A stretch of DNA of 64,000 nucleotides from assembly GCA_948614045.1 (NCBI GenBank), contig CAPFSK010000002.1, forward strand, positions 18,404 through 82,403, in the 5' to 3' direction. Under the pieces are notes generated by a model, which ran no database searches, was not told the origin of the DNA, and saw nothing but the letters and a program-made list of their open reading frames with translations. A program made the translations under genes and the position numbers. The stretch comes from an uncultured Candidatus Saccharibacteria bacterium. GTDB taxonomy: Bacteria; Patescibacteriota; Saccharimonadia; Saccharimonadales; Saccharimonadaceae. Shown one piece after another: positions 1,847 through 32,628 of the stretch (its first letter is position 1; each line of letters opens with the position of its first letter).

Positions 1847-2563
1847 CTATACAGCCTTTACTTCCGTATATCCACCTTCTTCTAATCCATCTAGCCGATA
1901 CGCTCCGAACTGCATGCGTTTCAACTCTACGACCGTATATCCTAACGCCCCAAACGTTCGTCGAATCTGCCGATTCCGCCCCTCATGCATCGTCACTTGC
2001 CACTTTTTTCGCGTCTCGTCCAGCTTCGCTAGCCCCAGCTTCGACACACCGTCTCCGATTTCAATCCCAAAATCCGCAATCTCTTGCTGATGTAGCGGCT
2101 CCAGCGCTCGGTCTAGCTCCACTTCATAAATCTTCGTTTTCGTAAACCGGGGATGTGTCATTCGAAACGCAAAATCACCATCATTCGTCAGCAATATCAA
2201 CCCTGACGAATCCTTATCTAATCTACCTACGGTCTTCAGCTCACGATACTCCTCCGGTAATAAATCATAAACCGTTGGCTCGCCACCCTGACTCTTTCGC
2301 GAACAAACTACCCCACGCGGCTTGTTCAATGCCACGTATAGATAAGCCGCCTCAGACGGCACCATCTTACCATTATAGCACACATTTGGATTTTTGTCAA
2401 TCCCAGAGCCCCCGTCATCCGTCCCGACCTCAATCCTCGCCCCCAACTCCGCCGTAGCACCATCTATCGTCACCTTTCCGGCTGCAATTGCATTATCCGC
2501 CTCGCGTCGCGAAATCCCCAGCCTTTCGGCTAAGAACTTATTTAGCCTGACTATTTCAGTCAT
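1847..2563 (-). CDS. Pseudouridine synthase, RsuA/RluB family (S4 domain + catalytic domain)
   Basis: S4-like RLNKFLAERLGISRREAD and catalytic GRLDKDSSGLILLTNDG. Confidence 0.85.
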   Translation of the reverse strand: MTEIVRLNKFLAERLGISRREADNAIAAGKVTIDGATAELGARIEVGTDDGGSGIDKNPNVCYNGKMVPSEAAYLYVALNKPRGVVCSRKSQGGEPTVYDLLPEEYRELKTVGRLDKDSSGLILLTNDGDFAFRMTHPRFTKTKIYEVELDRALEPLHQQEIADFGIEIGDGVSKLGLAKLDETRKKWQVTMHEGRNRQIRRTFGALGYTVVELKRMQFGAYRLDGLEEGGYTEVKAV

Positions 2564-3170: not shown

Positions 3171-4786
3171 GCGGCTCCTTTTTGGTTATTTAATTGATCG
3201 TTACGCGAAATTGTCAAATCATTTGGCCCGGTCACTGGCTGCACGGGCGCTTGTTGCACCGGCATCACCTGCGGCTGCACGGGCGCTTGTTGCACCGGCA
3301 TCACCTGCGGCTGCACTTGTTGTGCCTGAGGCACTACTTGCGTTTGCGCCTGCGCCGGCATCTGCACTACTGGCTGAGGCTGTTGCGGCACCACCGGCGC
3401 AGTCTGAACTTGCATTGTCTGCCCTGTTGCTTGTACCGCACTCGCAGCCGGCATCACCTGTGGTGCACTTGTCTGCTCCACGCTTTGCACTACCGTCGCC
3501 GTGCCTGCCTCTGCTCCTCGTAGCGGCACGCTCACGCTCGACGTCGTCACCTGCGGCTTCGCTCCGCTCTGCGTCTCGCTAAACGCCTGTACTGTCTGCT
3601 CATTTTGATACGCCAACAAGCGCTTCTGGTATTCGGCATTACTTAGCCTTGGTAGACTCACGAAGAACGTTGACCCATCCCCGAACGCACTCTCGACCCA
3701 CACTCGACCATCCATCGCTTCAACTCGCTGCTTGACTAGATATAACCCTAGACCTGTCCCGCCAATCTGCCGCGTCTGTGAATTGTCTACGCGATAAAAC
3801 TTCTGGAAAATATGCGCCGCATCATCTGGCGAAATCCCGATTCCATTATCAGTCACATTAATCAAGACCTTATCGCCATCGCCCCGCGCATTTACCCAAA
3901 TCTCGCCCCCCTCCGGCGTGTATTTAATTGCATTTTCAATCAGATTGTCCAAAATCTCTCTCAGCATCCCGAGGTCCACCGCTGCATAGACCAACTGCTC
4001 AATCTGTTTACCGTTTACTGGAGCATTCGTTCCGAAACTGTATTTCAGATGTTTTGCTGCCATGTCTTTCTCGCGCGCCCCCACCATTTCGCGCACTGTC
4101 GACACTATTTCGACTGGCACCAAGTGCAGTTTCAGCCTTCCATCATCCAACTTCGTCACATCCAACAAATCTTTGAACAAATGCCCGAGATGCTGACTCG
4201 CCTTGTGCGCAGCCTCTAGATATTGCTTTGCCCGGTCGTCAATCGTCGCCGTCTGCGGATTCAGTGCCAATCCGAGATACCCCTCAATCGAAGCCACCGG
4301 CGTCCGCATTTCATGGCTCGCCGTCGAAATAAACTCATTCTGGTCCTCTTCCTTCTCTAGCTCTTTCGTAATATCGCGAAAAGTAATGATCTTATTCGAT
4401 CGCGGTCCGCCCGTCGGAATCATCGTCAGCGAAATCGCCGCCTTACGTTCACTCTGTGCCGAAATCAAGACATACTCACGCGTATCAAACTGCTGGCCAG
4501 TCTGAATCGCCTGTGTTAACTTGCTGGTCTCCGGATTCACTGGCTGACCATCCGTCGTCTCAAACCTCAGCACAGCTTGATAACTCAGACCGATTACATT
4601 CGTCGGACTGCCATATCCCAACATTGTCGCTGCGGCCGGATTTGCGAATTTAATAATTCCTGCCTCGTCAATCAACATTACTCCATCATTGATTGCATTC
4701 AAAGTCAACGACGCAAGCGCCGAATAATTCGGAATTTCCGATGCCGACAGCGCCACCGGCTTCATTTTCTTCTTGAACAAACTCAT
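3167..4786 (-). CDS. PAS-domain sensor histidine kinase with ~140-aa Q/P/V-rich C-terminal tail
   Basis: H-box SHEMRTPVASIEGY, N-box LIENAIKYTP, and G-boxes DNGIGI and GGTGLGLYLV. Confidence 0.9.
   Translation of the reverse strand: MSLFKKKMKPVALSASEIPNYSALASLTLNAINDGVMLIDEAGIIKFANPAAATMLGYGSPTNVIGLSYQAVLRFETTDGQPVNPETSKLTQAIQTGQQFDTREYVLISAQSERKAAISLTMIPTGGPRSNKIITFRDITKELEKEEDQNEFISTASHEMRTPVASIEGYLGLALNPQTATIDDRAKQYLEAAHKASQHLGHLFKDLLDVTKLDDGRLKLHLVPVEIVSTVREMVGAREKDMAAKHLKYSFGTNAPVNGKQIEQLVYAAVDLGMLREILDNLIENAIKYTPEGGEIWVNARGDGDKVLINVTDNGIGISPDDAAHIFQKFYRVDNSQTRQIGGTGLGLYLVKQRVEAMDGRVWVESAFGDGSTFFVSLPRLSNAEYQKRLLAYQNEQTVQAFSETQSGAKPQVTTSSVSVPLRGAEAGTATVVQSVEQTSAPQVMPAASAVQATGQTMQVQTAPVVPQQPQPVVQMPAQAQTQVVPQAQQVQPQVMPVQQAPVQPQVMPVQQAPVQPVTGPNDLTISRNDQLNNQKGAA
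3237..3308. repeat. Perfect 36-bp tandem duplication (plus a partial third unit) inside the kinase tail
   Basis: GGCTGCACGGGCGCTTGTTGCACCGGCATCACCTGC x2. It encodes the repeated QVMPVQQAPVQP. Confidence 0.9.
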
Positions 4787-4829: not shown

Positions 4830-6575
4830 ATGTATATGAATAAGGAAGTTATTTATTTGGAGCCAGAAGATGATATCACCGACATCTTGACCAAGCTTCA
4901 ACAGGCGGAACAAAAACTAGTGGCTCTTGTGCCGCCCAAAAAAGCAACCATGCTACGCAGCGCGGTGAATATGAAGCTCGTCGCACGCACCGCGAAAGAG
5001 TGTGACAAGGTTGCAGTTATCGTGACGGCCGACCCAGCGATCGTGAAGATGGCGATGACCGCCCAGATTCCGATTGCGAAGACTCTGCAGTCTCGCCCGG
5101 TTGTCCCGACCAAGGAAGATATTGATAAAACCATGGCCGAGGAACAGGTAATTGACGAAGATTTGGCTGATGCAAGCGCTGCCGCTGAGCTTGATGAGCT
5201 AAAATCCGACAAAAATAGTGCTAAAACGCCCGGAAAGGACGCTAAGGGCGCTCCTGAGACGACTTCCAAAAAAGACGGTGAAATTATTAATCTTGACGAA
5301 GAGACCCTTGAAAACGGCTCTAAAGACGCTAAAAAGGGCAAAAATAAGGACAAAAAAGACAAAAACGGTAAAAAAGTCCCTAGTTTTGAAAAATATCGCA
5401 AATGGATCATCATTGGCTCTGTTGCCGCGGTTTTGCCGATTGCGGTCGGCGTTTGGGCTTTTGTCTTCGCTCCTGCTGCGAAGATTACCGTCGCTATGAG
5501 CACTTCCTCTGACAATTTTTCTGAAGAAGTGAAATTCACGACCGAAGAGAATGCCGAAAACCTTGATGAGGGTACTCTCTATGTCGAGAAACAGACCTTC
5601 GAGCAGCGCTATGATGCTGAGTTCACGGCTACAGGACAGGAAGACCGTGGGGAACACGCAAAGGGGAATCTCAAACTCTCATATACTTTTCAGCCCCAAT
5701 CACATAAGGACGGTTTTGGTATTGATATTCCAGCTAATACCGAATTTGTCGCTGGCAACGGTAAAGTCTATAAAGCTACGGCCGGGGCCTCAATTGCTTG
5801 GGATGGCACAATGCCAATTACTTGTTCAAATGGTACGGTAAACCGTCAAACTCAGAACTGTACACTTGTGGCCACAGTGCCGGTTGAAGCTGCTGGATCC
5901 GGGGAGAGTTTTAACCTCGCTAAGGGTGACGGTGACCCATGGAACGGATACCAGGGCGCGAGCGTCACTAATGAGGCTATCTCTGGCGGAACGACCAATA
6001 ATGTTACCGTCGTCTCCCTCCAGGATGTCCATAACGCCCGTGATCAGATTGCCGAGGAGCACGCCGAAGAAAATAAGACGAAATTCATGGACCAGTTGAA
6101 AAAGGATAAGGAATTCATCATTATTGAGCCAAGCTACGCTGCCGATATTAGTGACACGACCTCAAAGCCAGAAGTCGGCACCGAGGTTGGCGATGGCACG
6201 AAACCGACTGTCTCGGTGAAGATTAGCTATACCGTTTACACCGTGAAGAAGTCTCAACTTGAGCAGCTCATGGAAAAGAAAATGTCCGTTGGTGACGACC
6301 AGAAGATCTACTCTATTGGTGAGCCATATTTCGATCGCTTCACTAGTATCGAAGAGCCGGCCCGCCTGAAGACGACCGTCAAGATCGGTCCGACTGTCAC
6401 CGAAGAGACAATTATCGAGCGTACGAAGGGTAAGAAAATCGGTGAGGTTAACTCCCTCCTCCGCTCAATCAATGGCGTCAGTTCGGTCAATGTCTCCCCG
6501 TCTTATTTCTGGGTTCGCTCTGTTCCGAACGACCCTAGTCGCATCGAAGTCGACCTAACCGTGGAGGATAAATAA
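4830..6575 (+). CDS. Hypothetical single-pass membrane protein (N-terminal cytoplasmic domain, K-rich linker, large extracytoplasmic domain)
   Basis: Long ORF. The track start at 4773 would overlap the divergent kinase start, so an internal ATG at 4830/4836 is preferred. TM segment WIIIGSVAAVLPIAVGVWAFVFA. Confidence 0.7.
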   Translation: MYMNKEVIYLEPEDDITDILTKLQQAEQKLVALVPPKKATMLRSAVNMKLVARTAKECDKVAVIVTADPAIVKMAMTAQIPIAKTLQSRPVVPTKEDIDKTMAEEQVIDEDLADASAAAELDELKSDKNSAKTPGKDAKGAPETTSKKDGEIINLDEETLENGSKDAKKGKNKDKKDKNGKKVPSFEKYRKWIIIGSVAAVLPIAVGVWAFVFAPAAKITVAMSTSSDNFSEEVKFTTEENAENLDEGTLYVEKQTFEQRYDAEFTATGQEDRGEHAKGNLKLSYTFQPQSHKDGFGIDIPANTEFVAGNGKVYKATAGASIAWDGTMPITCSNGTVNRQTQNCTLVATVPVEAAGSGESFNLAKGDGDPWNGYQGASVTNEAISGGTTNNVTVVSLQDVHNARDQIAEEHAEENKTKFMDQLKKDKEFIIIEPSYAADISDTTSKPEVGTEVGDGTKPTVSVKISYTVYTVKKSQLEQLMEKKMSVGDDQKIYSIGEPYFDRFTSIEEPARLKTTVKIGPTVTEETIIERTKGKKIGEVNSLLRSINGVSSVNVSPSYFWVRSVPNDPSRIEVDLTVEDK

Positions 6576-9316: not shown

Positions 9317-10735
9317 ATGTTCGTCGATACGGCAAAAGTCAAACTCCAGGCCGGCAAGGGCGGCGACGGCGCAGTGTCGTTTCGCCACGAAATTTATATC
9401 CCGAAAGGCGGTCCGGACGGTGGCGACGGTGGTCGTGGCGGTAGTATTATCTTTCGCGCCGACAAAGATACGAATACCTTGATTGATTTTCGATTCAATC
9501 CCGAGCTGAAAGCCGAGAACGGTAAGAATGGCTCTGGCCAACGTAGCGCTGGCCGAGGAGGAAAGGATTTGATTGTCGAGGTACCAGTTGGTACGGTCGT
9601 GCGCAAGGATGGTGTCGTGCTGGCGGATTTGGCGGTTGATGGACGGGAAGCGGTGATTGCGAAGGGCGGCGACGGTGGCTTTGGTAACGCACACTTCAAG
9701 TCAAGCGTGCGTCAGACGCCGATGATTGCCGAAGTTGGCGAGCCAGGTGATGAGTTCGAGGCGGCACTTGAGCTGAAACTTATCGCCGACGTTGGGCTAG
9801 TCGGGTTGCCAAATGCCGGTAAGTCGACTTTCCTTAGTGTCGTCAGTAACGCTCGCCCGGAGATCGCCGATTATCCCTTTACGACGTTGACACCGCAGCT
9901 TGGTGTTGCGACGGTTGACGACCAAGATATTTTGATTGCTGATATTCCAGGATTGATCGAGGGTGCCGCCGACGGCAAGGGTCTGGGGCATGATTTCCTT
10001 CGCCATGTCGACCGCACGGCGGCATTGTTACATCTCGTTGATGTTTATAATGATGACGCTGGCGAGGCTTATCAGGTGATTCGGAAAGAGCTGGAGCGCT
10101 ACTCTGACTTACGTGACCGTCCAGAGATTGTCGCACTGACGAAATGCGAGGGTGTCGACCAAGATATAGTTGATATGCAGATTGCCAGTATTCTACGGGT
10201 TAATCCTGATGCGAAGGTTTATACGATTTCTTCCGCCGCGAAGCGGGGAATCACGGAAGTGCTGCGTGAGTTGGTGCGAATTAAACGCGAAGCTAAGAGT
10301 CAGCCTACGTCTCCGGATTCATTCGAGATGGGCGATGACGGGGCAGTGACATGCTCAGCCTCTGCGAGGTCATGGAGCTCCGACTCCTCAGGCGGGCGCG
10401 GGTCCGAATCTTTAGATGAGGAGAGCGCCCCCCCGACCGAGTCAGAAGCTGGGCATGTCGTAACTTTGCCTGTTATTTCTCTTTCCTCTGCTCAGCTCAG
10501 TAACGCTTGGAAAGTTGAAAAACTTGAGGACGGCGACGAGGTGAAATTTATCGTCACTGGTCCAAAGATTGAGAAGTTTGCTCGTCGCACGGATTTGAAT
10601 AATTACGCTTCGGTAAACCGCCTACGCGACATTATGAAAAAGCTCGGTATTCGCGCTGAGCTTACGTCACAAGGCGCCGAACCGGAATCAATTATCTCGA
10701 TTGCCGGGAAAGAATTTACGCTAGTAGAAGAATAA
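9317..10735 (+). CDS. obg: GTPase Obg/CgtA with C-terminal OCT domain
   Basis: MFVDTAKVKLQAGKGGDGAVSFRHE...GGPDGGDGGRGGS, G1 GLPNAGKST and G3 DIPGLIEGA. Confidence 0.95.
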   Translation: MFVDTAKVKLQAGKGGDGAVSFRHEIYIPKGGPDGGDGGRGGSIIFRADKDTNTLIDFRFNPELKAENGKNGSGQRSAGRGGKDLIVEVPVGTVVRKDGVVLADLAVDGREAVIAKGGDGGFGNAHFKSSVRQTPMIAEVGEPGDEFEAALELKLIADVGLVGLPNAGKSTFLSVVSNARPEIADYPFTTLTPQLGVATVDDQDILIADIPGLIEGAADGKGLGHDFLRHVDRTAALLHLVDVYNDDAGEAYQVIRKELERYSDLRDRPEIVALTKCEGVDQDIVDMQIASILRVNPDAKVYTISSAAKRGITEVLRELVRIKREAKSQPTSPDSFEMGDDGAVTCSASARSWSSDSSGGRGSESLDEESAPPTESEAGHVVTLPVISLSSAQLSNAWKVEKLEDGDEVKFIVTGPKIEKFARRTDLNNYASVNRLRDIMKKLGIRAELTSQGAEPESIISIAGKEFTLVEE

Positions 10736-10782
10736 GTTTTCATAACAGTGCTTGATGATGTGTACTGGGTAGTGTAATGCTA

Positions 10783-10811
10783 TTGACAAAAATAGCCAAG
10801 TATGCTACAAT
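10783..10811 (+). promoter_or_regulatory. Consensus sigma70-type promoter, copy 1 of a repeated promoter cassette
   Basis: TTGACA-17 nt-TGcTACAAT. Near-identical cassettes lie at 12889, 17402 and 56340. Confidence 0.75.
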
Positions 10812-10817
10812 GAAAAC

Positions 10818-11677: not shown

Positions 11678-11697
11678 ATGCCTTTTACTATCCCTCC

Positions 11698-11910
11698 GGC
11701 GCCACCACCATAGTACAGTTACCATTGGCTTTTGTCCGTAGCGGGTGGGCAAAGCTCGATGGCGGCAGCATGCGCGTCGTCGGCCAGTACGGCTACTACT
11801 GGTCTCGTACCTCTATATCTACTACTAACGCCTACGTCCTGTACATCAACCCTACAGGCGTCAACCCGTCAGGCAACGGCAATCGTTTCGTCGGTCTCCC
11901 CTCCGCTGCC
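11698..11910 (+). pseudogene. FISUMP/DUF1566-like C-terminal cassette C1 (no ATG or SD, tail replaced by the inverted flank of C2)
   Basis: Encodes GATTIVQLPLAFVRSG...GYYWSRT...NAYVLY...PSGNGNRFVGLP. Only a TTG start, directly after the terminator. C-run of 4. Confidence 0.6.
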
Positions 11911-11928
11911 GTACTTCCTCTTCCTCCA

Positions 11929-12195
11929 TTAGGCACTACCTGGGTAGAGGCAGCGGAGGGGGAAACCGTCATTTCGCATGTTACCGTTTGATGGATGAAT
12001 GACAGTAGGATCCGTATACAAATACCAGGCAAGAGTAGATGAAACTGCTGTACGCGCCCAACTATAAGCACCGCGTATATTACCAACATTCCCATAGTCT
12101 AAATAGACATACCCGCTACGGACAAAAGTGAGTGGTAAAATGTTGTGATTATAACAACGCACATTTCCACAGTAATAACAGAGGAGATATGGCAT
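11929..12195 (-). CDS. FISUMP/DUF1566-like mini-protein, cassette C2 (88 aa, the only fully intact copy)
   Basis: ATG start. LTFVRSG...YSWARTAVSSTLAWYLY...PSNGNMRNDGFPLRCLYPGSA* with a C-run of 5. Confidence 0.6.
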   Translation of the reverse strand: MPYLLCYYCGNVRCYNHNILPLTFVRSGYVYLDYGNVGNIRGAYSWARTAVSSTLAWYLYTDPTVIHPSNGNMRNDGFPLRCLYPGSA

Positions 12196-12385
12196 AATGT
12201 TGTAAAAAATACATGAAAAATAGTCAGCAAAAATCCTCGAAAATCCTTGCTATTTCTACGCGAGTCAAGTATACTAGTAACAGTTCGAAAGAACATAAGG
12301 CTAACTGCGAGCCAACGATAAGTTGAGAGCTTATATGTTCAAAAAGTCGCCATGCTATGGGCGATTTTTTGGATTCCGGCTAGAG

Positions 12386-12598
12386 TCAGCGGAGGGGGCG
12401 ACCATAGTAACGATTGCCATAGTTTGATGGATAGATAATGGAAAAGCTGAAGTATAGACTGTAGGTATCGTTAGTCGAGTTTGATGTACGCGTCCAGCTA
12501 TAGCCGTTTGCTCCGATGACTCTTGTCTGGCTGACGCCAAGATCTACATATCCACTACGGACAAAAGCCAATGGTAACTGTACTATGGTGGTGGCGCC
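12386..12598 (-). pseudogene. Cassette C3 (no own start; TGC->TGA at the conserved Cys)
   Basis: GATTIVQLPLAFVRSG...GYSWTRT...DTYSLY...GNRYYGRPLR*. The 46-nt 5' block is identical to those of C1 and C7. Confidence 0.6.
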
Positions 12599-12623
12599 GG
12601 TAGTCGTACTTCCTTTTCCTCCA

Positions 12624-12840
12624 TTAGGCACTACCTGGGTAGAGGCAGCGGAGGGGGGAAACCAGCCCAAAGATTATTACTGTCTGAAGGATTAACACTT
12701 GTAGGACGAGTGTAGAGATGATAAGCAGTAGCAGACGATCTAGCCGTACGTGACCAGAAGTCGCCGCTGTTACCGACCACCCGCATAGCACCCTCATAGT
12801 CAGTACTAACATTAACCCATCCGCTACGGACAAAAGCCAA
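12624..12840 (-). pseudogene. Cassette C4 (TTG start only; C-run of 6 shifts the tail out of the GFPLRC frame)
   Basis: AFVRSGW...GDFWSRT...TAYHLY...PSDSNNLWAGFPPPLPLPR*. The alternative frame ends ...PLRCLYPGSA*. Confidence 0.6.
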
Positions 12841-12888
12841 TACTTGGCTATCGATTTTTACGTCAGCAGCAGATATTCATAAACACTA

Positions 12889-12917
12889 TTGACAAAAATA
12901 CAAATCTGTGCTACAAT
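12889..12917 (+). promoter_or_regulatory. Promoter cassette copy 2
   Basis: TATTGACAAAAATAC...TGTGCTACAATG with a 17-nt spacer. Confidence 0.75.
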
Positions 12918-12981
12918 GTAAGTATGTAGTGAAAAACTCACTACAGATTAAGAATTAGACTTTTCGTAAAGAGTATCGGAC

Positions 12982-13059
12982 AAAACCCGTATACGGGTTT
13001 TACTGTTGAAGAACAGTAAAACCCGTATACGGGTTTTACTGTTGAAGAACAGTAAAACC
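12982..13059 (+). repeat. 36-bp tandem repeat (2.2 copies), each unit made of two perfect hairpins, in a long 5' leader
   Basis: AAAACCCGTATACGGGTTTT + ACTGTTGAAGAACAGT, repeated at 12982-13017 and 13018-13053, plus a partial unit. Confidence 0.9.
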
Positions 13060-17196: not shown

Positions 17197-17401
17197 GCTG
17201 ATGCGCGCCCACCCCGGGGCACATTGGTTTGTTTTAATCCGCTGTTTTTGTTTTTGTTAAAGTCTCCACACTCCACCAAACGTATTCAGTGGAACCCCTG
17301 TGAAGCGTACCAGCTTATACTTAGAATATAGCACAAACAGTTTCGTGTCAAGAGATTTTGCGCGAAAAGTCCAAAAATTATCAATCTCCGACCCTGCGGT
17401 A

Positions 17402-17430
17402 TTGACAAAAATGCAATTCTGTGCTACAAT
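17402..17430 (+). promoter_or_regulatory. Promoter cassette copy 3
   Basis: TATTGACAAAAATGC...TGTGCTACAATG with a 17-nt spacer. Confidence 0.75.
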
Positions 17431-17485
17431 GAAGAGATAAGGCCTATCTGCGTAGCGGATAGAGAACATTAAGGAGGGTGCAATT

Positions 17486-19057: not shown

Positions 19058-21136
19058 ATGGATTTATCCGCGCCGATTGAATCAGTGAAAGGAGTTGGCC
19101 CGAAGACCGCCGAAGTTTTGCGGCGGGTGAACTTGCGCACTATCGGCGACCTCGTCTATTGTCTCCCGCGTGTTTATGAAAACTACCAGACAACGGTCAA
19201 AATCGCCGATTTACGGCCCGGCAAAGTTGTCATTCGTGGTAAAATTAGCGACCTGCGCCTCGTCCGCACCAGCCGCAAACGCCTGACTATCACTCAGGGT
19301 GTTATTCGCGACGACACTGGCGCGATTCGCACGCTTTGGTTCAATCAGCCTTACCGTGCCAAACAATTTGACGAAAAGCGCGAGTATTATTTCACTGGCA
19401 CTTATGAATTCAAGAGTGGGCGCTATCAGCTCACCTCGCCTAGCGCCACCCTTGTCCAAGACGTCGAGCAAGATTCCGCGGCCGGCTTCCAGCCGATTTA
19501 TTCGGCTAAGAGCGTCATTAAGCCTCAAACTTTTCATAAACTGATGGATGGCCTCCGTCCTGACTTCACCAAAATTCCAGATTTATTACCGCTCACAGAC
19601 GGCGCACCAAAATTCATTACGAAAGGCGCGCGTGCCGAGGCGCTCTATAATTCACATTTTCCCGAAAGCCCCGAAGACGCCGAGAAAGGCCGCGAATATC
19701 TCGCTTATGAAGAATTATTTGAACTCATCCTCGCCGCGAAACTTAACAAGCAGGAAAATCAACGTCTAAAATCAATCCCACTAAGATTTGAAGCTAAATT
19801 TATCCAAGCCATTGTCCAGCACCTGCCGTTCAAACTTACTGGAGCTCAGCGCCGCGCGACTTGGGAAATTTTGCAAGACCTCGAGCGCGGCACGCCAATG
19901 AACCGCTTACTCCAGGGGGATGTCGGCTCCGGCAAGACTATCGTCGCCGCCCTTGCCGCCGCCGAAGCTACGAAAAACGGCCATCAGACCGCCCTGCTCG
20001 CTCCGACCGCAATTCTCGCCACCCAGCATTTCGAGAGCCTCGGAGAATTGTTTAGCATGCTCGGCGGTGCCTTGCAGCGTCAGAAGATTGCCTGGCACAT
20101 GCCGCGGATTGCGCTCTTGACCGGCTCAACTCGCGACAAACGCCAGCTGAAAAAACTCATCGAACAGGGTGAAATCGACTTTGTCGTCGGTACGCACGCG
20201 CTGCTTACGGACGATACGCATTTCCATTCGCTGGCGTTCTGCATTATCGACGAGCAGCACCGCTTTGGCGTCGGTCAACGCCAAAAACTCCTTTTGAAAT
20301 CGCCCGAAAACACTGCCCCGCACCTCCTCTCGATGACCGCCACTCCGATTCCGCGCTCCCTCCAACTCACCGTCTTCGGCGACCTTGACGTTTCGCTCCT
20401 CAACGAACTTCCGCCGGGGCGTCAACCGATCGTCACTAAAATTCTTCCCGAGGTCGAGCAGCGCGACGAACTTTACCCTGCGATGCGCGAACTTTTAGCT
20501 AAGGGTCAGCAAATTTATTGGATTTGCCAGGTAATTGAAGAAAAAAATGCCAATACCGCTACTCCGGTCATCGAACAAGCCAAGAAACTCGCTAAGCTTT
20601 TTCCGAAGATAAAAGTCGACATGCTTCACGGTAAGATGAAACCCGACGAAAAGGATGCTATTATGACCCGCTTTGCCGCTGGTAAAATTCAAATCCTCGT
20701 CTCGACCACGGTCGTTGAAGTCGGCGTCAACGTGCCGAATGCCAATATGATCGTCATCCAAGACGCCGAAGGCTATGGCCTCGCCCAGCTTCATCAACTT
20801 CGCGGGCGCGTCGGTCGCGGCGATCAGCCGGCAAGTTGTTACCTTCTCACGACCGGCGAAGGTAAACCCTCGCGTCGCTTGCGTGAAATGGAAAAGTCAA
20901 CTGACGGCTTCCATCTTGCTGAAGTCGACCTCAAAATCCGCGGCCCGGGCGAAATTTACGGTTCGCAGCAGCATGGCGAGCTAAATCTCCAAGTCGCAAA
21001 CTTGACAGATACGCAGCTTATTGCTCAGGCTAGTCATCATGCCTCCGAGTTTGTCAAACATCCCGAAAATCTTCAAAATTACTCTGAACTCGCCACGCGC
21101 ATCAAGAAATACCAGCAACTCACCACCCTAAACTAG
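19058..21136 (+). CDS. recG: ATP-dependent DNA helicase RecG
   Basis: Wedge domain, motif I GDVGSGKT, DEQHRFG and QLRGRVGRG. 692 aa. Confidence 0.95.
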   Translation: MDLSAPIESVKGVGPKTAEVLRRVNLRTIGDLVYCLPRVYENYQTTVKIADLRPGKVVIRGKISDLRLVRTSRKRLTITQGVIRDDTGAIRTLWFNQPYRAKQFDEKREYYFTGTYEFKSGRYQLTSPSATLVQDVEQDSAAGFQPIYSAKSVIKPQTFHKLMDGLRPDFTKIPDLLPLTDGAPKFITKGARAEALYNSHFPESPEDAEKGREYLAYEELFELILAAKLNKQENQRLKSIPLRFEAKFIQAIVQHLPFKLTGAQRRATWEILQDLERGTPMNRLLQGDVGSGKTIVAALAAAEATKNGHQTALLAPTAILATQHFESLGELFSMLGGALQRQKIAWHMPRIALLTGSTRDKRQLKKLIEQGEIDFVVGTHALLTDDTHFHSLAFCIIDEQHRFGVGQRQKLLLKSPENTAPHLLSMTATPIPRSLQLTVFGDLDVSLLNELPPGRQPIVTKILPEVEQRDELYPAMRELLAKGQQIYWICQVIEEKNANTATPVIEQAKKLAKLFPKIKVDMLHGKMKPDEKDAIMTRFAAGKIQILVSTTVVEVGVNVPNANMIVIQDAEGYGLAQLHQLRGRVGRGDQPASCYLLTTGEGKPSRRLREMEKSTDGFHLAEVDLKIRGPGEIYGSQQHGELNLQVANLTDTQLIAQASHHASEFVKHPENLQNYSELATRIKKYQQLTTLN

Positions 21137-21276
21137 ACAGAAATCAAAAAGTATGCTATAATGGAAGTATGGGGTAGTCATAATCTGCGACTACACTGTT
21201 TTTATTAAGGGGTACCAACCCCCGCATTTTTAATAATCTAAAAGATAGAAGACTCATAGAAGGGAAGTGATTTTTC

Positions 21277-24254: not shown

Positions 24255-24339
24255 GCCCGTGTGGTGAAATTGGTATACACGTATGCCTTAGGAGCATATG
24301 CCGCAAGGCGTGCTGGTTCAAGTCCAGTCGCGGGCACCA
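24255..24339 (+). tRNA. tRNA-Leu (anticodon UAG), long variable arm, CCA encoded
   Basis: Acceptor GCCCGTG/CGCGGGC, anticodon loop CTTAGGA, variable arm GCCGCAAGGCGT, T-arm GCTGGTTCAAGTCCAGT. TGCTATAAT promoter at 24237-24245. Confidence 0.9.
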
Positions 24340-25898
24340 TCAATGAATTCCTTGCCTTTGAGCAAGGTAGCAAAAGGCTCTTTCCAGAGGAAATGAGGCC
24401 TTTTTTCATCGTCAATTTCGAGGTTCAAGACGCATTTTCGAGTAAGCATGTCTTTTTCGGCTACACCAGCATTTCTTATCTGTTGCGGAAGGTTTTTAAG
24501 CAGGTTCAAGAACTCATCTTTAGAAACTATGGCTTGTTGGTATTTCTCGATATTGCCATCAATCTTCGAAAGTTCTGTCTCGATGTTTGCTAGGTCAGTT
24601 TCCAAAGACGCTAACTTATTCTGGGCGAGCTCACGGGGCTTCGAGCCAACTTGTAAGCTTGGCATTACGTTAAAAGAAATATGGTTTATTTCTGACGTTA
24701 GGTGAGATTTTCTACCTTGTAGACTACGGCGGTCAGTTCTCAACTGGACGACTTTCTCATCCGACCGTTTACCAAACTGCTTGCTATATGCTTTGTATTC
24801 TTTCTCCGTAAACTTTACGCTGTCTAGAGCTCTGTATAGAACGTTAAATATCGCCTCTGCACGTATGCTCTTTTGTGTTCTGGTACACTCCTTGTTGTCG
24901 CATCTATAATATAGATACCTTTCCTTACTGTGCGACCGACTAGCTCCAGGATACATTACATGCCCACAAACACCGCAACGCACCATGCCTCTTAAAGGAT
25001 AAAATGTAGCACGATTCTTCTTACTGGTTTTACCGGTCTTTCCATGAGGATTATCCGCAACAATAGCCTGAACTTTGTTGTATTCTTCCTCCGTCACCAT
25101 TGGCTTGAAATCATCAATTACTTTCCTTAAGTCCACCTCTTGGTCTGCTTGGACTAGCACTCCATAGTAAAATGAATCTTTGAAGATATTTGTCGGAGTA
25201 TTTATACTTGGCTTTATTGCTCGCGGAGTTTTATTCTTCCTATTAACCTTTGTCATCTTTTCCATTCCACTTTGTAGCCAGTAATCCAAAATCTCCTTAT
25301 TGCCCGCACCTTCTAACTTCATCTCCCAACCCTTACGGACTAAATCAAAGTTACTATCGGGTTCATAAAACCCTTGTAAGTTGCGATTATAGCCCCATTT
25401 TGGAGTGCCAGAGGACTTACCTTCTGGCAGTCTATTATCATTAGCACGTAACACACCTTCAGAAATATGCTCGGAGTATTGTTTAGCTAGAGCAAATAGG
25501 ATGTTCAACATAAGCTTACCACTACTATCATTCTCAAATCGACAAAACGGGAACTTCATGTCCTTAATGATTTCCTTGTCATACATGTCCATGATGGTAC
25601 CAGACTCTAGTGAGTTGCGAGAGAGCCTATCAGGATGCCATGCAATAATACCATCATAGATACCGTTTTCGATATCTTGTATCATCTCCATAAATGCTGG
25701 TCTGTTCTTGGGTGTTTTGGCAGACTTTTCTTCACGTATGACCTTAACAATCTTTAGTCCCTCACGCTTTGCTAGAGCCTTACAGTCCTTTATCTGGTCT
25801 TCAATGGAATGCTCTTGACTACCTTTATCTTCTGTAGATTTCCTCGCATACAGGACATAGTTCAGTTTAGATACATCTATCTCCTTTTTGCGTGCCAT
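24318..25898 (-). CDS. Large serine recombinase (integrase)
   Basis: N-terminal resolvase domain YARKSTEDKGS...HPDRLSRN, recombinase domain, zinc ribbon CGVCGH...YYRCDNKEC, and a coiled-coil tail. Confidence 0.9.
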   Translation of the reverse strand: MARKKEIDVSKLNYVLYARKSTEDKGSQEHSIEDQIKDCKALAKREGLKIVKVIREEKSAKTPKNRPAFMEMIQDIENGIYDGIIAWHPDRLSRNSLESGTIMDMYDKEIIKDMKFPFCRFENDSSGKLMLNILFALAKQYSEHISEGVLRANDNRLPEGKSSGTPKWGYNRNLQGFYEPDSNFDLVRKGWEMKLEGAGNKEILDYWLQSGMEKMTKVNRKNKTPRAIKPSINTPTNIFKDSFYYGVLVQADQEVDLRKVIDDFKPMVTEEEYNKVQAIVADNPHGKTGKTSKKNRATFYPLRGMVRCGVCGHVMYPGASRSHSKERYLYYRCDNKECTRTQKSIRAEAIFNVLYRALDSVKFTEKEYKAYSKQFGKRSDEKVVQLRTDRRSLQGRKSHLTSEINHISFNVMPSLQVGSKPRELAQNKLASLETDLANIETELSKIDGNIEKYQQAIVSKDEFLNLLKNLPQQIRNAGVAEKDMLTRKCVLNLEIDDEKRPHFLWKEPFATLLKGKEFIDGARDWT

Positions 25899-25927
25899 AG
25901 ATGTATTATATCATATTACCCCTGTTA

Positions 25928-26149
25928 TTAGAACTTAATCATACCTCCTCTATTATCACTCATAGTAGTTGCTGTATCAAACTTCGCCCATTCTGGATTG
26001 GGGCACGGTGTATTTTGCAGGTGTTTCAGGCAGTGGACTAGAGCAACCAGATTGTCGCCAGCCTCATCCTCTTTGGACCGTAAAGCGAGCACTAGCCGAC
26101 TATCACTATCATCAGGCTTCAAAATCAAACCATTCTGATTAGTCTTCAT
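25928..26149 (-). CDS. Hypothetical small protein (73 aa)
   Basis: ORF in the same orientation as, and tightly spaced with, the integrase operon. Confidence 0.45.
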   Translation of the reverse strand: MKTNQNGLILKPDDSDSRLVLALRSKEDEAGDNLVALVHCLKHLQNTPCPNPEWAKFDTATTMSDNRGGMIKF

Positions 26150-26253
26150 CAGCTAGTGCCTCCGTGTTTATGTTAGTTTTTGTTTTATACTGACATTATC
26201 TCGTAAGACACCAAAAAGTTCTTCACCCGTGAGGGGGATATTTGGGGGATGTT

Positions 26254-26868
26254 TTATTCTATATCGAGTCTATAAGCGGTTGGGTTTGTCCGGACCCTGT
26301 TGACGTGCTTATGGCCATCTCCGTAGTATGGAGCTAGAGCTTCATCAAGTTTGCATTTATGCCTAGATACAGTAGCGACGTTATCGTCACCCCATATCCT
26401 TGCTATCTCCACCATCGTCAGAACATGCTCATCATTCAATAGGAATGCTACTAGGACTTCCCGGAGTTTACCACCAAAGGCTATTTCCTTATCGCGAAAC
26501 AGAATACGTCCACCAACCAGTAGCTCATAATCACCAAGTTTCGTAGGCTGATGTCTAGACTGTGCGGAGCGATTGATAGACTTGAGATGATATAGTTGCC
26601 CTCGCATATCAACAATTAACCCGATATAGTGCCTCAAATAGTCACCACAATTATCTGGAGTTAGTTCACCAAACGTATTGCCAGCAATTAGTCTAGCGTG
26701 TAAATCTAACTGGTCGGTGCCCAGAACTAGCGTATCTAGTTCCTGTTTCCAAGAAGATATGTCATCAACAGTTAGGGGCAGAGTTTGAGCTTTAACCGAC
26801 AGCCTACCTAGACTTTTAGCTATTTCTTCTAAATGCTCCAATTCTTCTGTTGTATCGCCCCGAATCAT
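26254..26868 (-). CDS. Putative DNA-binding regulator with OmpR/PhoB-like winged-helix C-terminus
   Basis: The C-terminus resembles trans_reg_C: LREVLVAFLLNDEHVLTMVEIARIWGDD...VSRHKCKLDEAL...AYRLD. Confidence 0.55.
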   Translation of the reverse strand: MIRGDTTEELEHLEEIAKSLGRLSVKAQTLPLTVDDISSWKQELDTLVLGTDQLDLHARLIAGNTFGELTPDNCGDYLRHYIGLIVDMRGQLYHLKSINRSAQSRHQPTKLGDYELLVGGRILFRDKEIAFGGKLREVLVAFLLNDEHVLTMVEIARIWGDDNVATVSRHKCKLDEALAPYYGDGHKHVNRVRTNPTAYRLDIE

Positions 26869-26925
26869 GGGTATATTATAACAGATGTAGTCGTCGATTA
26901 GTATTGAGGGGTGCCGTATTATATA

Positions 26926-28356
26926 CTACTGCTCATCTAATTCGGCTAGTTGACGCAAAAGTTCCGCCCTGCGTTGCTCCTTATAATCGTCAACAACCGT
27001 TTCAGGTATATCTAGCGTGCTTTGGTGTCGGTTCATAAACCCAGCAACGTCCTGATTGACGATAATATCTTCTCTACTAATCGGTCGAGTGAGATATAGA
27101 CTGTCCAAAGAAACACAACGGGAAACCGCCACATAAGTCTGACCCGAGCTAAATGCTCCTCCCTCTAAATTTACCTCTACTGATTTGTAGGTTTGACCCT
27201 GTGCCTTATGAATGGTTAATGCCCATGCCAAACGTAATGGAAATTGCGTGAAAGTAGCAACAGTCCGAGCTACCAATTTTTTAGTATTGGCATTATACTC
27301 ATAAACTTTCTTCTCCCAAGTAGCACGGTCAATGCGGTATTCGACTTTGTTAATCATAACTTTCACCATATCCTGCGATAGCTCCGATACAACCCCAATA
27401 GTGCCGTTCACCCAGCGTCTACCCCGATTGGTTCCGTATGTAGCCTCATCACCCTCTGTATCGTTCTTCAACATCATAACTTGAGCACCAACTTTTAGGT
27501 GTAGCTCCACTTCGGTTGGAGTACCAAACTTGGAAAAATCACCAGTAATACTTGCTTGATAAGTGTATTCTGGTCGTCCAATTTGATTTAATCTTTCTTG
27601 ATTAATTCTTGAAACTGTTTCGTTGCGAGGACTGAGGACTATGGCTCGATTATGGTCATCGCGTGGGGCAGTGCCAGAACAATGGTTGAGAACATCCAAC
27701 TCGTTGTCAGTAATACGGCCCTCCCGCATGTCGTTTAGAATACTGATAAAACCGGGATCCTTTTGCCGAAAAACACGTTTAAGTTCATAGACTGGCAGTG
27801 GTGCCCTATCAAATACTGGTGCATTAAAGAAAAACACACCACCATACTTATCCGTCAAATATCTATCTACTTGCGGCTCAACGACTGGTGGTAGTTGATA
27901 TAAATCTCCGAACATAAGGACTTGTTTTCCACCAAACGGCAATGTATTGTTGTTGGCAAGCTGCAATTTAAGGTCAATGGCCGACATAACATCCACTCTC
28001 ACCATTGAGACCTCGTCTATGATGAGAACATCAATAGATTTCAAAATCTCCTGACGTTTACCCCATACACCCTTGCGTTTGATTTCTTCAAGGTTTTGAA
28101 CATTAATATCTAGCCCGAAGAATGAATGCATTGTTTGGCCGCCAACATTTAGTGCTGATATCCCAGTTGGGGCAACTTTTACCACGTTCTTATGTGTATT
28201 CTTAACAAAATACTCTAGCAAAAAGGACTTACCGGAACCAGCTCGACCAGTTATATACATGGTTTCATTGGCTCTCTCCATACGATTAAAAATGCGAATT
28301 TTCTCCTCGTTTGGTAGTTCGTTATTGCTCTTCGTCACCGGTTTAAGGAGTGCCAT
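26926..28356 (-). CDS. Pif1/RecD-like SF1 helicase
   Basis: Walker A GRAGSGKS, Walker B LIIDEVSMV, FGDLYQLPPV, and the C-terminal TIHKAQGQTY motif. Confidence 0.85.
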   Translation of the reverse strand: MALLKPVTKSNNELPNEEKIRIFNRMERANETMYITGRAGSGKSFLLEYFVKNTHKNVVKVAPTGISALNVGGQTMHSFFGLDINVQNLEEIKRKGVWGKRQEILKSIDVLIIDEVSMVRVDVMSAIDLKLQLANNNTLPFGGKQVLMFGDLYQLPPVVEPQVDRYLTDKYGGVFFFNAPVFDRAPLPVYELKRVFRQKDPGFISILNDMREGRITDNELDVLNHCSGTAPRDDHNRAIVLSPRNETVSRINQERLNQIGRPEYTYQASITGDFSKFGTPTEVELHLKVGAQVMMLKNDTEGDEATYGTNRGRRWVNGTIGVVSELSQDMVKVMINKVEYRIDRATWEKKVYEYNANTKKLVARTVATFTQFPLRLAWALTIHKAQGQTYKSVEVNLEGGAFSSGQTYVAVSRCVSLDSLYLTRPISREDIIVNQDVAGFMNRHQSTLDIPETVVDDYKEQRRAELLRQLAELDEQ

Positions 28357-28361
28357 CTTAA

Positions 28362-28790
28362 TTACTCCTTATCACTATCATCTAATAGCCCCACCTGATT
28401 AACGGCAGCCTTACTCTTCGTCGTCCGTCTAGGCTTCTTTGGTGTAGCTTTAGATTCATTTTTAAGTTGAGGACGAGCGACTACTTCTGATGCTGATGGG
28501 TTTAATTGAGTAATAGGTTCGGGCTGGGACGACTCCTGTGCTACGATAGGTGTATCATAGTCGTCATCAGCATTAATAGTTCCTGACTCTTGCCGTAATA
28601 CCTCCTTATAGGCAAGATTACTCAACGCATAGGCAGTCTGTCGAGTTTCCTCTAGACTAGTAGTTAATTCCGCCAAGCTAGAGCTTATACCTTTGATTAG
28701 TTCATGGTATGAAGCAATTTTTTGCTCAAGTGTTTGAATACTATTGCTCATTTGTTCCCAACGGCTAGCATCGTTACCGGTCAGTTCCAT
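28362..28790 (-). CDS. Hypothetical coiled-coil protein with basic tail
   Basis: First gene of the leftward operon. Helical N-terminus and K/R-rich C-terminus. Confidence 0.55.
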   Translation of the reverse strand: MELTGNDASRWEQMSNSIQTLEQKIASYHELIKGISSSLAELTTSLEETRQTAYALSNLAYKEVLRQESGTINADDDYDTPIVAQESSQPEPITQLNPSASEVVARPQLKNESKATPKKPRRTTKSKAAVNQVGLLDDSDKE

Positions 28791-28831
28791 AAGACTCCTT
28801 TTACATAAATATTATTGTGGTGACAATTAAA

Positions 28832-28951
28832 AAGGACACCACGAGAGGTGTCTTACTTCCTACATCACACCTAGACACAAAGTGTCCTGGTGTTCTACAT
28901 GGTGTCCTGTAAATGGGCACCTTGTGTATCAGATGTGATGTATTAAGTAAG
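28832..28951. promoter_or_regulatory. Iteron/operator cluster
   Basis: Palindrome AGGACACC-n5-AGGTGTCT (28833-28853). A 21-bp imperfect IR (28851-28871 / 28930-28951) brackets direct repeats GTGTCCTG, GTGTTCTA, GGTGTCCTG and GGGCACCT. Confidence 0.55.
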
Positions 28952-29739
28952 ACATCTATATTATACCATACGAACCCAATTCATCAAACAGAAACCGCCC
29001 TGCGGACGGTTCGCTGGCAGACCTAACGGTCGCCATCGGGGACACTAATTAGCGTACATGATAGATTCACCAGACAAATACTCTAGCTACTATCATCAAA
29101 AGAAAAATAATAATTCATGCGAGCGATACTGTCATTTGATATAATTCACCAATACTATAAAACGAACACCTATATCACTTTTACAGAGGTATATACTTTG
29201 ATGAGTCCTTATTTCTCTATATAGACTATATTGAGTAAGAACCCAATCATTTCCTATAATTCCCCCGCAAAATACCGCCTCAAAACGCCCGTTTTAGGCT
29301 GATTCTACAGTGTAATGGTCTGACTTTAAGACACTCTCATTGTCGAGATGATACTTATACCGTCTTCGATATTATGTTGCCGATTTCTCACTGGTGTCGG
29401 TGCGATTCAGAGCTAAAACAGTATAATGAATGTCTTTGTCTCTCCTTGAGTTCCTACCCACTTCCGATTGGTGGTGAGCTCCAGTAGAGCAGAGAACTCG
29501 GCGGGGAGGGGTTTAGCTAATATCATCAAGATAAAACATCAAAAGACTAAAGGACTACATATAAATCATGCGAATAGTAGTATCTAAACCTCCTCTATTC
29601 CGTAAGGGCAAGCCTACTCCATATTCATCAAGCTAGACCGACAAGGGGGCTCTGGAGGGGGTAGCTAAAGTAAGCAACCAACTATTCTCTTAACAGCTCC
29701 GCTGTCTGTCTATGAGTATTAAATAAAAGGAGCATAACT

Positions 29740-30030
29740 ATGAGCAATGCTGAAGAGTTACGAACTATACTAACAAGAATCATCAAAAACAACAAGCTAT
29801 ATGGATGTAGTTTTACCTATGGAGTAGCTTTGCGTATGGGTATAGTAAACCAACTATTTCCCGACGAATTAGACCAACTGATTACCGATACGATTGAAGA
29901 CATCTATAAGGACACTCTGGACGTGATGGGCGACGCGGGTATGCGTGTCGATACTGTTGCTATAGCCCACGTCATTGATATAGCAGTGCTAGACGAGATA
30001 GCTCGACATCTTATTGACGAGGAAGATTAG
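29740..30030 (+). CDS. Hypothetical acidic small protein (96 aa)
   Basis: ORF with SD AAAGGAG. Confidence 0.55.
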   Translation: MSNAEELRTILTRIIKNNKLYGCSFTYGVALRMGIVNQLFPDELDQLITDTIEDIYKDTLDVMGDAGMRVDTVAIAHVIDIAVLDEIARHLIDEED

Positions 30031-30127
30031 CTACCAGGTAGGAGGAGTCATTGCGACTTCTCCTCTTTTTATGTCACCAATACAAAGCCCTTCGGGCTCT
30101 GCCTACAGCCTCCGCTGGTGAGAATAG

Positions 30128-30907: not shown

Positions 30908-31122
30908 CAGTTAAGCTCCTTTGTCTAAATTATAACACTTCGAGTAATAGGTTCAAAAGTTTTCTGGTAGTTCTCCTACAACTTGTATTCCTCTTGATGT
31001 CTTAAGATTGCCAATATCTCTTGCGTGACCGATTCGGGCTCCAATAGCTGAATACTATCATCTTGTGCCAGGTATTCTACAAGATAATCGTAATGTTCAA
31101 GCAAGTTCACACTCGGGGCACC

Positions 31123-32150: not shown

Positions 32151-32411
32151 TCAGTTTTCCGAAAGATCGGCACCAAACTGTGGCCAAACCCAGCGGAGGG
32201 GGAAACCCCAGTAGCGATTTGTCGCATTCATATTGAGATCCGTAGGGTTGAAGTTGAGACGATAGGCGTTGGTAGACGAGTTTGCCGTACGCGACCAGTC
32301 GTAGCCGTTGCTACCGACGTTGGCGACACCACCACCGGTAAGATTAGTATGCCCGCTACGGACAAAAGCCAAACATAACCTAGCGCTAGAGCAAAAGAAG
32401 CCAGTCCGCAC
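32151..32411 (-). CDS. Cassette C6: FISUMP/DUF1566-like mini-protein with divergent tail (GTG start)
   Basis: LAFVRSGHTNLTGGGVANVGSNGYDWSRTANSSTNAYRLNFNPTDLNMNATNRYWGFPLRW.... Cys->Trp at the conserved RC. Confidence 0.45.
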   Translation of the reverse strand: MRTGFFCSSARLCLAFVRSGHTNLTGGGVANVGSNGYDWSRTANSSTNAYRLNFNPTDLNMNATNRYWGFPLRWVWPQFGADLSEN

Positions 32412-32628
32412 TTAGCCTAACCATAATCAGACTAATCCCTGCACTCACAATTTTTCCTCTGACTTTGAGAGTCTGGCTTCACGATCTTTCAAAAGGGAAC
32501 TTATTACAACTGGAGCTTGACCTCAGATGTTGTAGTCGGGTCCCATGGAGCTTGCCCTCCACTTCTTCATTTTAGCACACCGTAAAATCATAAAACGTGC
32601 TACAATATATGAGACTCGAAGGAGGAAA

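Follow-up and report, generated by a model that had tools for sequence, protein, structure and literature searches.

The DNA considered here is a 64,000-nt stretch (the window) of contig CAPFSK010000002.1 from an uncultured Candidatus Saccharibacteria bacterium. Seven short related units were located in it, C1 to C4 at 11.7-12.85 kb and C5 to C7 at 31.5-32.4 kb. A preliminary description, made from the sequence alone, had already placed C1 to C4 at these positions and strands; it preferred a silent-cassette or shufflon-type system and treated diversity-generating retroelements (DGRs) as a resemblance. The positions and strands were confirmed and the preferred explanation was modified: C1 to C4 are probably orphan acceptor cassettes, or variable repeats (VRs), of a DGR, which would undergo rewriting in trans and, in addition, exchange by recombination. 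That C1 to C4 belong to the DGR family of VR cassettes is concluded with high confidence, and that they are being rewritten at present with moderate confidence.

Each unit has a divergent interior next to near-invariant blocks (Table). The interiors were 51-64% identical in pairwise DNA comparisons, with mismatches over all four bases, in agreement with the earlier estimate that about half of the positions differ. The 5' block (51 nt) was 98% identical across loci 20 kb apart; the 3' block (56 nt, 96% identical) extended beyond the stop codon. A VR unit is delimited by two landmarks: the 5' boundary of homology between VRs and template repeats (TRs), GCTTTTGTCCGTAGYGG, which in some copies is preceded by a framework block encoding GATTIVQLPLA, and a GC-rich 3' end, GGTTTCCCCCTCCGCTGCCTCTA, with a 40-nt VR-specific tail. 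C2 was the sole window unit with an ATG-started open reading frame (ORF) and an intact tail, GFPLRCLYPGSA followed by a stop codon; its VR-type tail (11950-11911) lay 3' of the stop, and the unit was identical in at least eight metagenome contigs. In C1, a tract of four C residues shifted the frame at the end of the unit and, beyond ...CCGCTGCC, the tail was replaced by the reverse complement of the C2 tail; the C1/C2 junction was predicted to fold into a hairpin (-22.6 kcal/mol, z = -4.7). The conserved Cys codon of C3 was replaced by TGA. C4 was frameshifted by six C residues, not five, in GGTTTC(n)TCCGC, and its tail abutted the 5' block of C3. The ATG and intact tail of C2, the TGA of C3 and the frameshift of C4 were all as first described. 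Between the array and the next gene (12982-13053), a palindromic 36-nt unit, AAAACCCGTATACGGGTTTTACTGTTGAAGAACAGT, is present twice in perfect tandem and resembles a bidirectional terminator.

Table. Positions of the cassette units and associated elements in the 64,000-nt window
Feature	Position	Strand	Description
C1 5' block (GATTIVQLPLA-coding framework 5' of VR)	11696..11730	+	98% identical to 31525-31575 and 12566-12600(-)
C1 VR	11731..11908	+	no usable start; own tail missing
C1/C2 tail-to-tail junction	11892..11965	.	inverted GC-rich end elements CCCCTCCGCTGCC / GGCAGCGGAGGGG flanking the 40-nt tail of C2
C2	11929..12195	-	88-aa ATG ORF; VR 12126-11951; intact GFPLRCLYPGSA-stop end
Terminator-like hairpin and T run	12347..12364	-	directly 3' of C3
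C3	12387..12600	-	5' block 12600-12566 and VR 12565-12387; no start
C4	12606..12834	-	VR 12834-12646 and 40-nt VR-type tail 12645-12606; no 5' block
C5	31525..31745	+	5' block and VR; ATG-started 89-aa ORF, frameshifted end
C7	31885..32135	-	VR and tail; broken by 34-nt tandem duplication 31923-31990
C6 template-repeat RNA gene	32160..32490	-	structured leader, Asn-codon-rich TR 32366-32191, 3' element GGTGCCGATCTTT, closing helix AAAGAUCG/CGAUCUUU around all
Promoter-like motif copies	10781-10812, 12887-12918, 17400-17431, 21132-21163	+	
Promoter-like motif copy	2364-2404	-	

A profile of the seven unit peptides matched 278 proteins in a set of 5.8 billion (E<=1e-3, best 3e-30); all were 65-134 aa in length, lacked Pfam annotation and came mostly from gut metagenome assemblies, some of them from mouse gut. 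When a genome collection was scanned with a two-anchor DNA pattern, more than 93 loci were found, nearly all of them in Candidatus Saccharibacteria metagenome-assembled genomes (MAGs), several derived from mouse gut. The load was 25-40 units per genome, frequently at contig ends. Units of the Saccharibacteria type were also present on contigs filed as Lachnospiraceae, Roseburia or Clostridia MAGs or isolates (L022, L033, L036, L038, L044, L063, L070, L102 and L110). The unit peptide of L036 is identical to that of L043 from the genome CANBEI, and these filings probably reflect mis-binning or co-culture contamination.

The units had been likened to the C-terminal part of the FISUMP/DUF1566 lectin-like domain, without its N-terminal half. 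The proposed check, an hmmscan of the seven single units against Pfam and NCBIfam, gave no match to Fib_succ_major/TIGR02145 or Lcl_C/DUF1566 at E<=10. Two family proteins, P0010 (E=0.04) and P0113 (E=0.004), scored below the curated cut-off on the FISUMP model, both at profile positions 126-186 of 187. A 116-sequence family profile then recovered 5,635 proteins from 1.84 billion representatives. Long proteins (P0344, P0317, P0310 and P0267) matched the unit profile with E between 1e-24 and 1e-30 and bear PF09603 at 55-92 bits. In the two proteins with a single resolved domain, the unit match fell at the C-terminal end of PF09603, over its last ~70 residues (713-769 for a domain at 530-765 in P0344; 502-574 for one at 365-570 in P0310); in P0267 it overlapped the Lcl_C match. 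In full-length relatives from Saccharibacteria, which were 500-650 aa in length, an N-terminal signal or transmembrane segment and a FISUMP start, 'CWMTQNLA', were present, and the unit formed the extreme C terminus. By transitive homology, the unit is therefore assigned to a divergent FISUMP domain, as its C-terminal ~70 aa; this assignment holds because of the family profile and the full-length relatives, as single units alone do not match. In FISUMP (Fib_succ_major, PF09603/TIGR02145) and Lcl_C/DUF1566, the alignment with the unit covers the last ~60-70 positions (LP..xxRSG...WS.T...AY.L...PS...GF.[LV]RC). In contrast to those families, single units and the full-length protein of the lineage remain below the curated thresholds (P0370, 32.2 bits against TIGR02145, cut-off 41.65), and the domain is divergent with a long insertion.

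Two types of unit were distinguished. TR-type units had 10-17 Asn codons and a GFPLRW... end followed by GGT(T)CGGTGCCGATCTTT, and VR-type units had the GFPLRCLYPGSA-stop end followed by CTCTACCCAGGTAGTGCCTAATGGAGG.... Both types have GGTTTCCCCCTCCGCTG in common, after which VRs continue with CCTCTACCCAGGTAGTGCCTAATGG and TRs with ...GGTGCCGATCTTT, a pattern that appears similar to the initiation of mutagenic homing pair (IMH/IMH*) of DGRs. CANBEI, CAZFZV and CALBZW each had 11-13 TR-type units, and one was recognised in CAOQYN; TR-type peptides were conserved between species. Exactly one template RNA was found in the window, namely C6, with ten Asn codons, the GFPLRW end, the TR-specific 3' motif and a peptide identical to that of L101 from CANBEI. 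The seven units do share their blocks, but C6 is a template RNA and not a cassette, so the seven-member cassette family first proposed has to be amended. The best candidate for a VR partner of the C6 TR was 75% identical, and its bias was not clear.

Alignment of 31 TR-type units with their flanks revealed an RNA in which the 5' leader forms three helices and the whole template is enclosed by a fourth, closing helix, AAAGAUCG/CGAUCUUU. In the four helices 81% of cells were paired, compared to 35-57% with slid partners, and there were 125 double-sided changes compared to 43 in shuffles; the covariation score was reached by 0/500 shuffles. No Rfam family matched the template RNA or the cassettes. 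The covarying scaffold amounts to a clade-wide definition of a DGR RNA, which could be used to find systems and to study how the enzyme recognises its template.

Differences between TRs and VRs of the same genome were concentrated at adenines. When the L050 TR was compared to six VRs, 36/40 A columns varied, compared to 17/51 C, 10/41 G and 13/47 T columns; between L076 and L081, 9/10 mismatches from TR to VR were at A. For 16 pooled VRs that were 80-90% identical to their best same-genome TR, mismatches occurred at 40% of A and 9% of other sites; with the roles of the same pairs reversed, the values were 9% (A) and 17% (other). The window units were tested against TRs of sister genomes, and in these cross-genome comparisons C1 was 79% identical to the L095/L098-type TR (mismatches at 18/45 A and 20/133 other sites, p=1e-3), C4 was 82% identical to the L109-type TR (14/46 A and 20/142 other, p=0.016) and C7 differed from the L072 TR type at 28/48 A and 34/131 other sites (p=9e-5). 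Two candidate pairings were rejected. Among the window units themselves there was no TR/VR pair, since all 42 ordered pairs had 15-40% of their mismatches at A, and P0020, considered as a same-species TR for C4, came from a more distant species and showed 72% identity and no bias.

The orthologous loci were compared between strains, as the preliminary description had advised. CANBEI and CALBZW were 95-96% identical to the window in syntenic stretches. In strain L014/L017/L018, the flanks, the spacer, C1 and C2 were 100% identical to the window and the interiors of C3 and C4 were entirely different (~55% identity), with replacement borders that fell precisely after ...TTTTGTCCGTAGTGG and before CCCCCTCCGCTGCC.... 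CALBZW had a third haplotype at the C3 and C4 positions, with identical flanks of about 90 and 190 nt; the C4 interior was replaced in L014 and L073. The C3 content of CALBZW belonged to the L109 TR family (mismatches at 25/45 A and 43/137 other sites, p=0.005), and that of L014 resembled TR-type ORFs of another ('NDGKM') family. The three haplotypes would fit the rewriting of one acceptor by different templates. The earlier statement that the units are not an ordinary gene family was borne out.

The enzyme and a full-length target of the DGR were found elsewhere in the lineage. Reverse transcriptases (RTs) were encoded in L111 (1401-2618, minus strand) and L005 (1220-2464, minus strand), with an RVT_1 match at E=9e-9 and the motifs IGNLTSQ and YVDDF. 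The (I/L/V)GxxxSQ motif marks DGR enzymes. In L005 the RT was 414 aa in length and adjoined a family member directly downstream; in L111, which is from CALBZW, the RT and a 325-aa accessory ORF were immediately followed by a TR. A total of 7,623 RT homologues was found, and the locus was syntenic across Saccharibacteria in the order recJ-priA-def-fmt-DUF5663-accessory-RT, small CdiA_C-like genes, target gene, infB. The accessory ORF (325-332 aa) overlapped the start of the RT in all loci and matched no Pfam or NCBIfam family. The target gene, of about 535 aa, encodes a signal peptide, an N-terminal domain and a divergent FISUMP/lectin domain.

Two full-length targets carried the same blocks as the window units, P0370 (534 aa, ending in ...GATTIVQLPLAFVRSG...LRCLYAGSA) and P0374 (536 aa, of the SNIISLPLA type). 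Their VRs matched the L095/L098 and L050 TRs with an A bias (p about 1e-4). A full-length gene with the 5' block, for which the preliminary description had advised a search, was therefore located in the lineage: P0370 carries the 5' block of C1, and comes from a related metagenome strain and not from the window genome itself. The 3' end of P0370 was 83% identical to C1 over 219 nt, and among the units the 3' end was fixed while upstream homology to the target varied from 0 to ~220 nt. Because of this identity and the fixed 3' end, the cassettes are regarded as 5'-truncated paralogues of the 3' end of the target gene; that they are 5'-truncated retrocopies is speculation. A VR at the 3' end of an expressed ORF, as DGR targets have, is predicted for P0370 and P0374, and does not appear in C1, C3, C4 or most other units.

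Several side observations concern the DGR core. Small ORFs resembling CdiA_C, the C-terminal domain of contact-dependent inhibition toxins, lay beside it in every lineage examined (L111 459-878; L115 8429-8863; L116 9054-9350; L122 4811-5707). The canonical target was full length (536 aa) in L123 (4313-5923) and cut to 122 aa in L005 (1-900), where it had a promoter-like leader of its own and an inverted unit lay upstream, so that the main target is structurally heterogeneous. In another Saccharibacteria lineage, the VR of a 606-aa target and ~100 nt of its downstream flank formed an inverted repeat (L116 8492-8800 / 9692-10000; L117 4796-5085 / 6008-6297) that was 100% identical in one sample and 91% identical in another. 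It brackets a CdiA_C-like gene beside the RT, no Asn-rich TR was seen there, and it may represent either an invertible arrangement or a VR-like template.

A number of results weigh against the proposal that C1 to C4 are DGR acceptors rewritten in trans. A tblastn search found no RT in the 64-kb window, and neither the accessory gene nor a full-length target was present in it; since all three lie outside the window, we infer that its array would be acted on in trans. A same-genome TR at >=80% identity was available for 17/100 non-TR units, and VRs that had a close TR still mismatched it at 9% of non-A sites, which is worse than textbook DGR pairs. For C2, C3, C5 and the L014 replacement cassettes, no TR above 72% identity and no A bias were found. 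Single VR tails did not fold into a hairpin (z = -0.28 and +1.30) of the kind that characterised DGRs need. The AlphaFold model of the 122-aa form was not confident (pLDDT, the predicted local distance difference test score, of 45). In L015 the differences from the window were confined to six bases, which were clustered at the C1 5' end and not A-specific. Finally, the content of C7 recurred at other loci with 97-98% identity (98.3% in CANBEI and CALBZW), and in CALBZW it lay on the 5' flank of C5 in opposite orientation. As independent mutagenic homing could not give identical interiors, this last result points to recombination, and transfer of unmutated cassettes by recombination does seem to occur as well. 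Rearrangement breakpoints among relatives coincided with unit clusters.

The position of C7 content in CALBZW is also what might be expected of shufflon-type inversion, in which a recombinase flips the tail-to-tail pairs (C1/C2 and C5/C7) at inverted 5' blocks and so swaps the interior on the ATG flank. The pairs do have inverted 28-36-nt 5' anchors (I13, I3, I12) and one ATG flank each (C2, C5). However, C1 and C2 had the same orientation in 8/8 contigs, and inversion cannot produce the head-to-tail replacement of C4 and C3. No tyrosine or small serine invertase was found near 11.7-12.9 kb or 31.5-32.5 kb, in accordance with the earlier remark that no recombinase or RT is adjacent. The sole window recombinase (24318-25898) is of the large serine type and was rejected as a cassette recombinase, since it is confined to the tRNA end of an unrelated, strain-specific 6.8-kb island that is absent in relatives. 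Inversion of this type is therefore considered extremely unlikely. Compared to the R64 shufflon (pilV/rci) and other systems of invertible C-terminal segments, the arrays likewise contain C-terminal coding segments that face each other and begin in inverted repeats at the 5' side, but lack an Rci-type recombinase, a constant N-terminal gene reading in and orientation variants of C1/C2.

The coding state of the units was then considered. As judged from their reading frames, C1, C3 and C4 cannot be expressed in their present form, and C2 is an ATG ORF without demonstrated expression signals; for these reasons the array is probably an orphan acceptor cluster rather than a gene set. No promoter-like site was present 5' of C4 or C2, and there was no Shine-Dalgarno signal. 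Across the family, 15/106 non-TR units had an upstream in-frame ATG, and most units met a stop within 1-40 codons. The frame was open over about 60 codons in 105/106 of these units, compared to a stop in 90% of shuffled cores, and the in-frame length was kept in 97/106. The length of the poly-C tract determined the end of the unit: five C residues gave LRCLYPGSA and a stop, and four gave readthrough via the linker PSAASTQVVPNGGKGSTTTGATTIVQLP into the next tandem unit. Multi-unit ORFs that remained in frame were found (P0241, P0242).

The amino acid pattern is kept, as had been reported, but the argument drawn from it, that the units evolved as coding sequence, is weakened, because templated renewal from stop-free, AAC-coded TRs suffices to explain the 105/106 open frames without selection on each copy; use of the units as donors also would. 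The open frames, the TTG or ATG that precedes AFVRSG in most units and the 65-90-aa ORFs that gene callers predict in hundreds of contigs could also be read as independent mini-proteins, each unit being translated from that codon into a peptide of about 65 aa with its own function. This explanation is very improbable: besides the lack of Shine-Dalgarno or promoter signals, the unit is merely the last third of a lectin domain, no confident fold was obtained even for the 122-aa form, and TRs, which are RNA templates, carry the same TTG.

The same defects raise the question of inert relics, that is, decaying duplicated fragments of a DGR target gene that have no present role and whose mutual likeness would stem from this descent alone. 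Starts are missing from C1, C3 and C4; C3 is interrupted by a stop, C4 by a frameshift and C7 by the 34-nt duplication; a close TR is lacking for 83% of units; and the sequences 5' of C4 and C2 contain no promoter-like site. Decay, however, does not yield 100% identical flanks with interiors replaced at the same two borders in three lineages, nor 98-100% block identity beside 55% interiors, nor open frames in 105/106 copies, and the defects concentrate in the poly-C tract and not in the interiors. We regard relics as unlikely.

Somewhat less unlikely, although still doubtful, is a silent-cassette reservoir of the pilE/pilS, msp2 or vls type, in which promoter-less donors are recombined into the full-length lectin gene and the DGR is an additional mutator. 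This explanation is compatible with DGR acceptors rewritten in trans and adds a function to them. It would account for copies that are truncated at the 5' end and have divergent cores between flanks of 98-100% identity, for a single full-length gene with the same blocks in the lineage (its P0370 VR being the one that C1 resembles at 83% identity), for the open frames in 105/106 units, for unmutated content that moves between loci and a short conversion patch at the C1 5' end, and for the rearranged L005 target gene with an inverted unit upstream. On the other hand, no full-length gene bearing orphan-cassette content was found, the match of full-length VRs to TRs with an A bias is a sufficient explanation of their content, and templating alone can keep frames open. 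The C3 stop and C4 frameshift are neutral here, as the poly-C/Cys end is in the shared block, which is not transferred. Like the silent cassettes of Neisseria pilE/pilS, Anaplasma msp2/p44 and Borrelia vlsE, the units are numerous copies of the variable part of a single surface-protein gene that are truncated at the 5' end and lack a promoter, with conserved flanks around a hypervariable core, dispersed or clustered in both orientations and accompanied by a single full-length gene. In contrast to those systems, transfer is suggested here from cassette to cassette only, and diversity arises when RNA templates are reverse transcribed, a process absent from those systems. The exchange of interiors between invariant blocks that the silent-cassette proposal implied was retained, since the strain comparisons display it directly. 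The family itself is a DGR family of TRs and VRs, with an RT that would act in trans.

If C1 to C4 are DGR acceptors rewritten in trans, the following sequence of events may be proposed. Structured template RNAs, at least 11-13 per genome and C6 among them, would be transcribed and then copied with adenine-specific errors by one RT and the accessory protein, both encoded next to def-fmt. The cDNA would replace the content between the two landmarks of any acceptor and, because the landmarks are common to all templates and acceptors, different templates could rewrite one cassette. Homologous recombination at the invariant blocks would shift unmutated contents between loci. An extended version is a two-tier machine, in which more than ten template RNAs, as alternative frameworks, are served by one RT, the silent hypermutated cassettes are recombined into the full-length lectin gene and the poly-C tract (4, 5 or 6 C) switches between stop and readthrough into tandem units. 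Such a machine is improbable; if it exists, DGR mutagenesis and cassette variation of the pilS kind would be joined in one epibiotic bacterium whose genome is of the ~1-Mb class.

The system resembles the DGRs of Bordetella phage BPP-1 (mtd/TR/brt) and the chromosomal DGRs of Treponema denticola and Legionella in its RT with the IGNLTSQ motif and overlapping accessory ORF, its invariant template rich in Asn (AAC) codons, its adenine-specific differences from TR to VR, the VR that forms the 3' end of the sequence for a lectin-type surface protein, and a GC-rich shared end after which TR and VR sequences diverge. Remote targets served in trans are known (PMC10907252, PMC4891356), as are DGRs in candidate phyla radiation (CPR) bacteria (PMC10907252). 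The differences are that here at least 11-13 templates are present per ~1-Mb-class genome, each in its own structured RNA copy and most of them far from the RT, that most acceptors are fragments without an ORF, that no hairpin follows single VRs and that non-A mismatches are frequent. In DGR surveys one TR is the rule, a few dozen elements have two or more, and up to 6 targets per MAG occur (PMC11661182); in DiGReF the maximum was 4 VRs, and just two VRs lay outside ORFs (PMC3521204). A literature search that did not cover the main CPR DGR survey yielded no account of genomes with ten or more template RNAs and dozens of ORF-less acceptors, so an earlier description is possible.

The usual picture of a DGR is one template, one enzyme and one to few genes. 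In gut Candidatus Saccharibacteria the DGR is massively expanded, each genome having dozens of cassettes and over ten RNA templates, and several percent of the intergenic space of a host-attached bacterium with a reduced genome is given to template RNAs and cassettes that are mostly not genes. If the orphan cassettes are active as acceptors or donors, the choice of framework would multiply the diversity of one surface lectin, which may serve in attachment to the bacterial host or the gut; retrohoming would maintain open frames without selection on a protein; and the repeats would account for poor assembly and rearrangement at these sites.

The second array has features of its own. The 34-nt tandem duplication of C7 (perfect to 94%) destroys its frame, and the CALBZW TR orthologous to C6 (L069 1381-1470) contains a ~37-nt triplication; short tandem duplications seem to recur in these units. 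The sequence between the tails of C5 and C7 (31766-31885) forms a hairpin of very high stability (-43 kcal/mol, z = -9.4) whose arms are 26 nt long, and a related tail (...GAGATAGNTACTTTCAGAAACCA) was present 3' of units in several other genomes (L053, L066, L075, L088).

The 6.8-kb segment at 24255-31115 is probably an integrative element; its start lies at the 3' end of a tRNA gene (24255-24336). It was missing in L013, L069 and L101, where window position 24339/24340 is joined directly to 31.1-32.3 kb, and it encodes the 526-aa large serine recombinase (24318-25898, minus strand) and a PIF1-like helicase (26926-28356, minus strand).

A promoter-like motif of ~32 nt, TATTGACAAAAAT-N-TGCTACAATG, with TTGACA, a 17-nt spacer and an extended -10 element, precedes unrelated genes in the window with 69-94% identity between copies. 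A long minus-strand ORF contains two perfect tandem copies of a 36-nt sequence (3237-3308), with a third copy of 64% identity at 3387.

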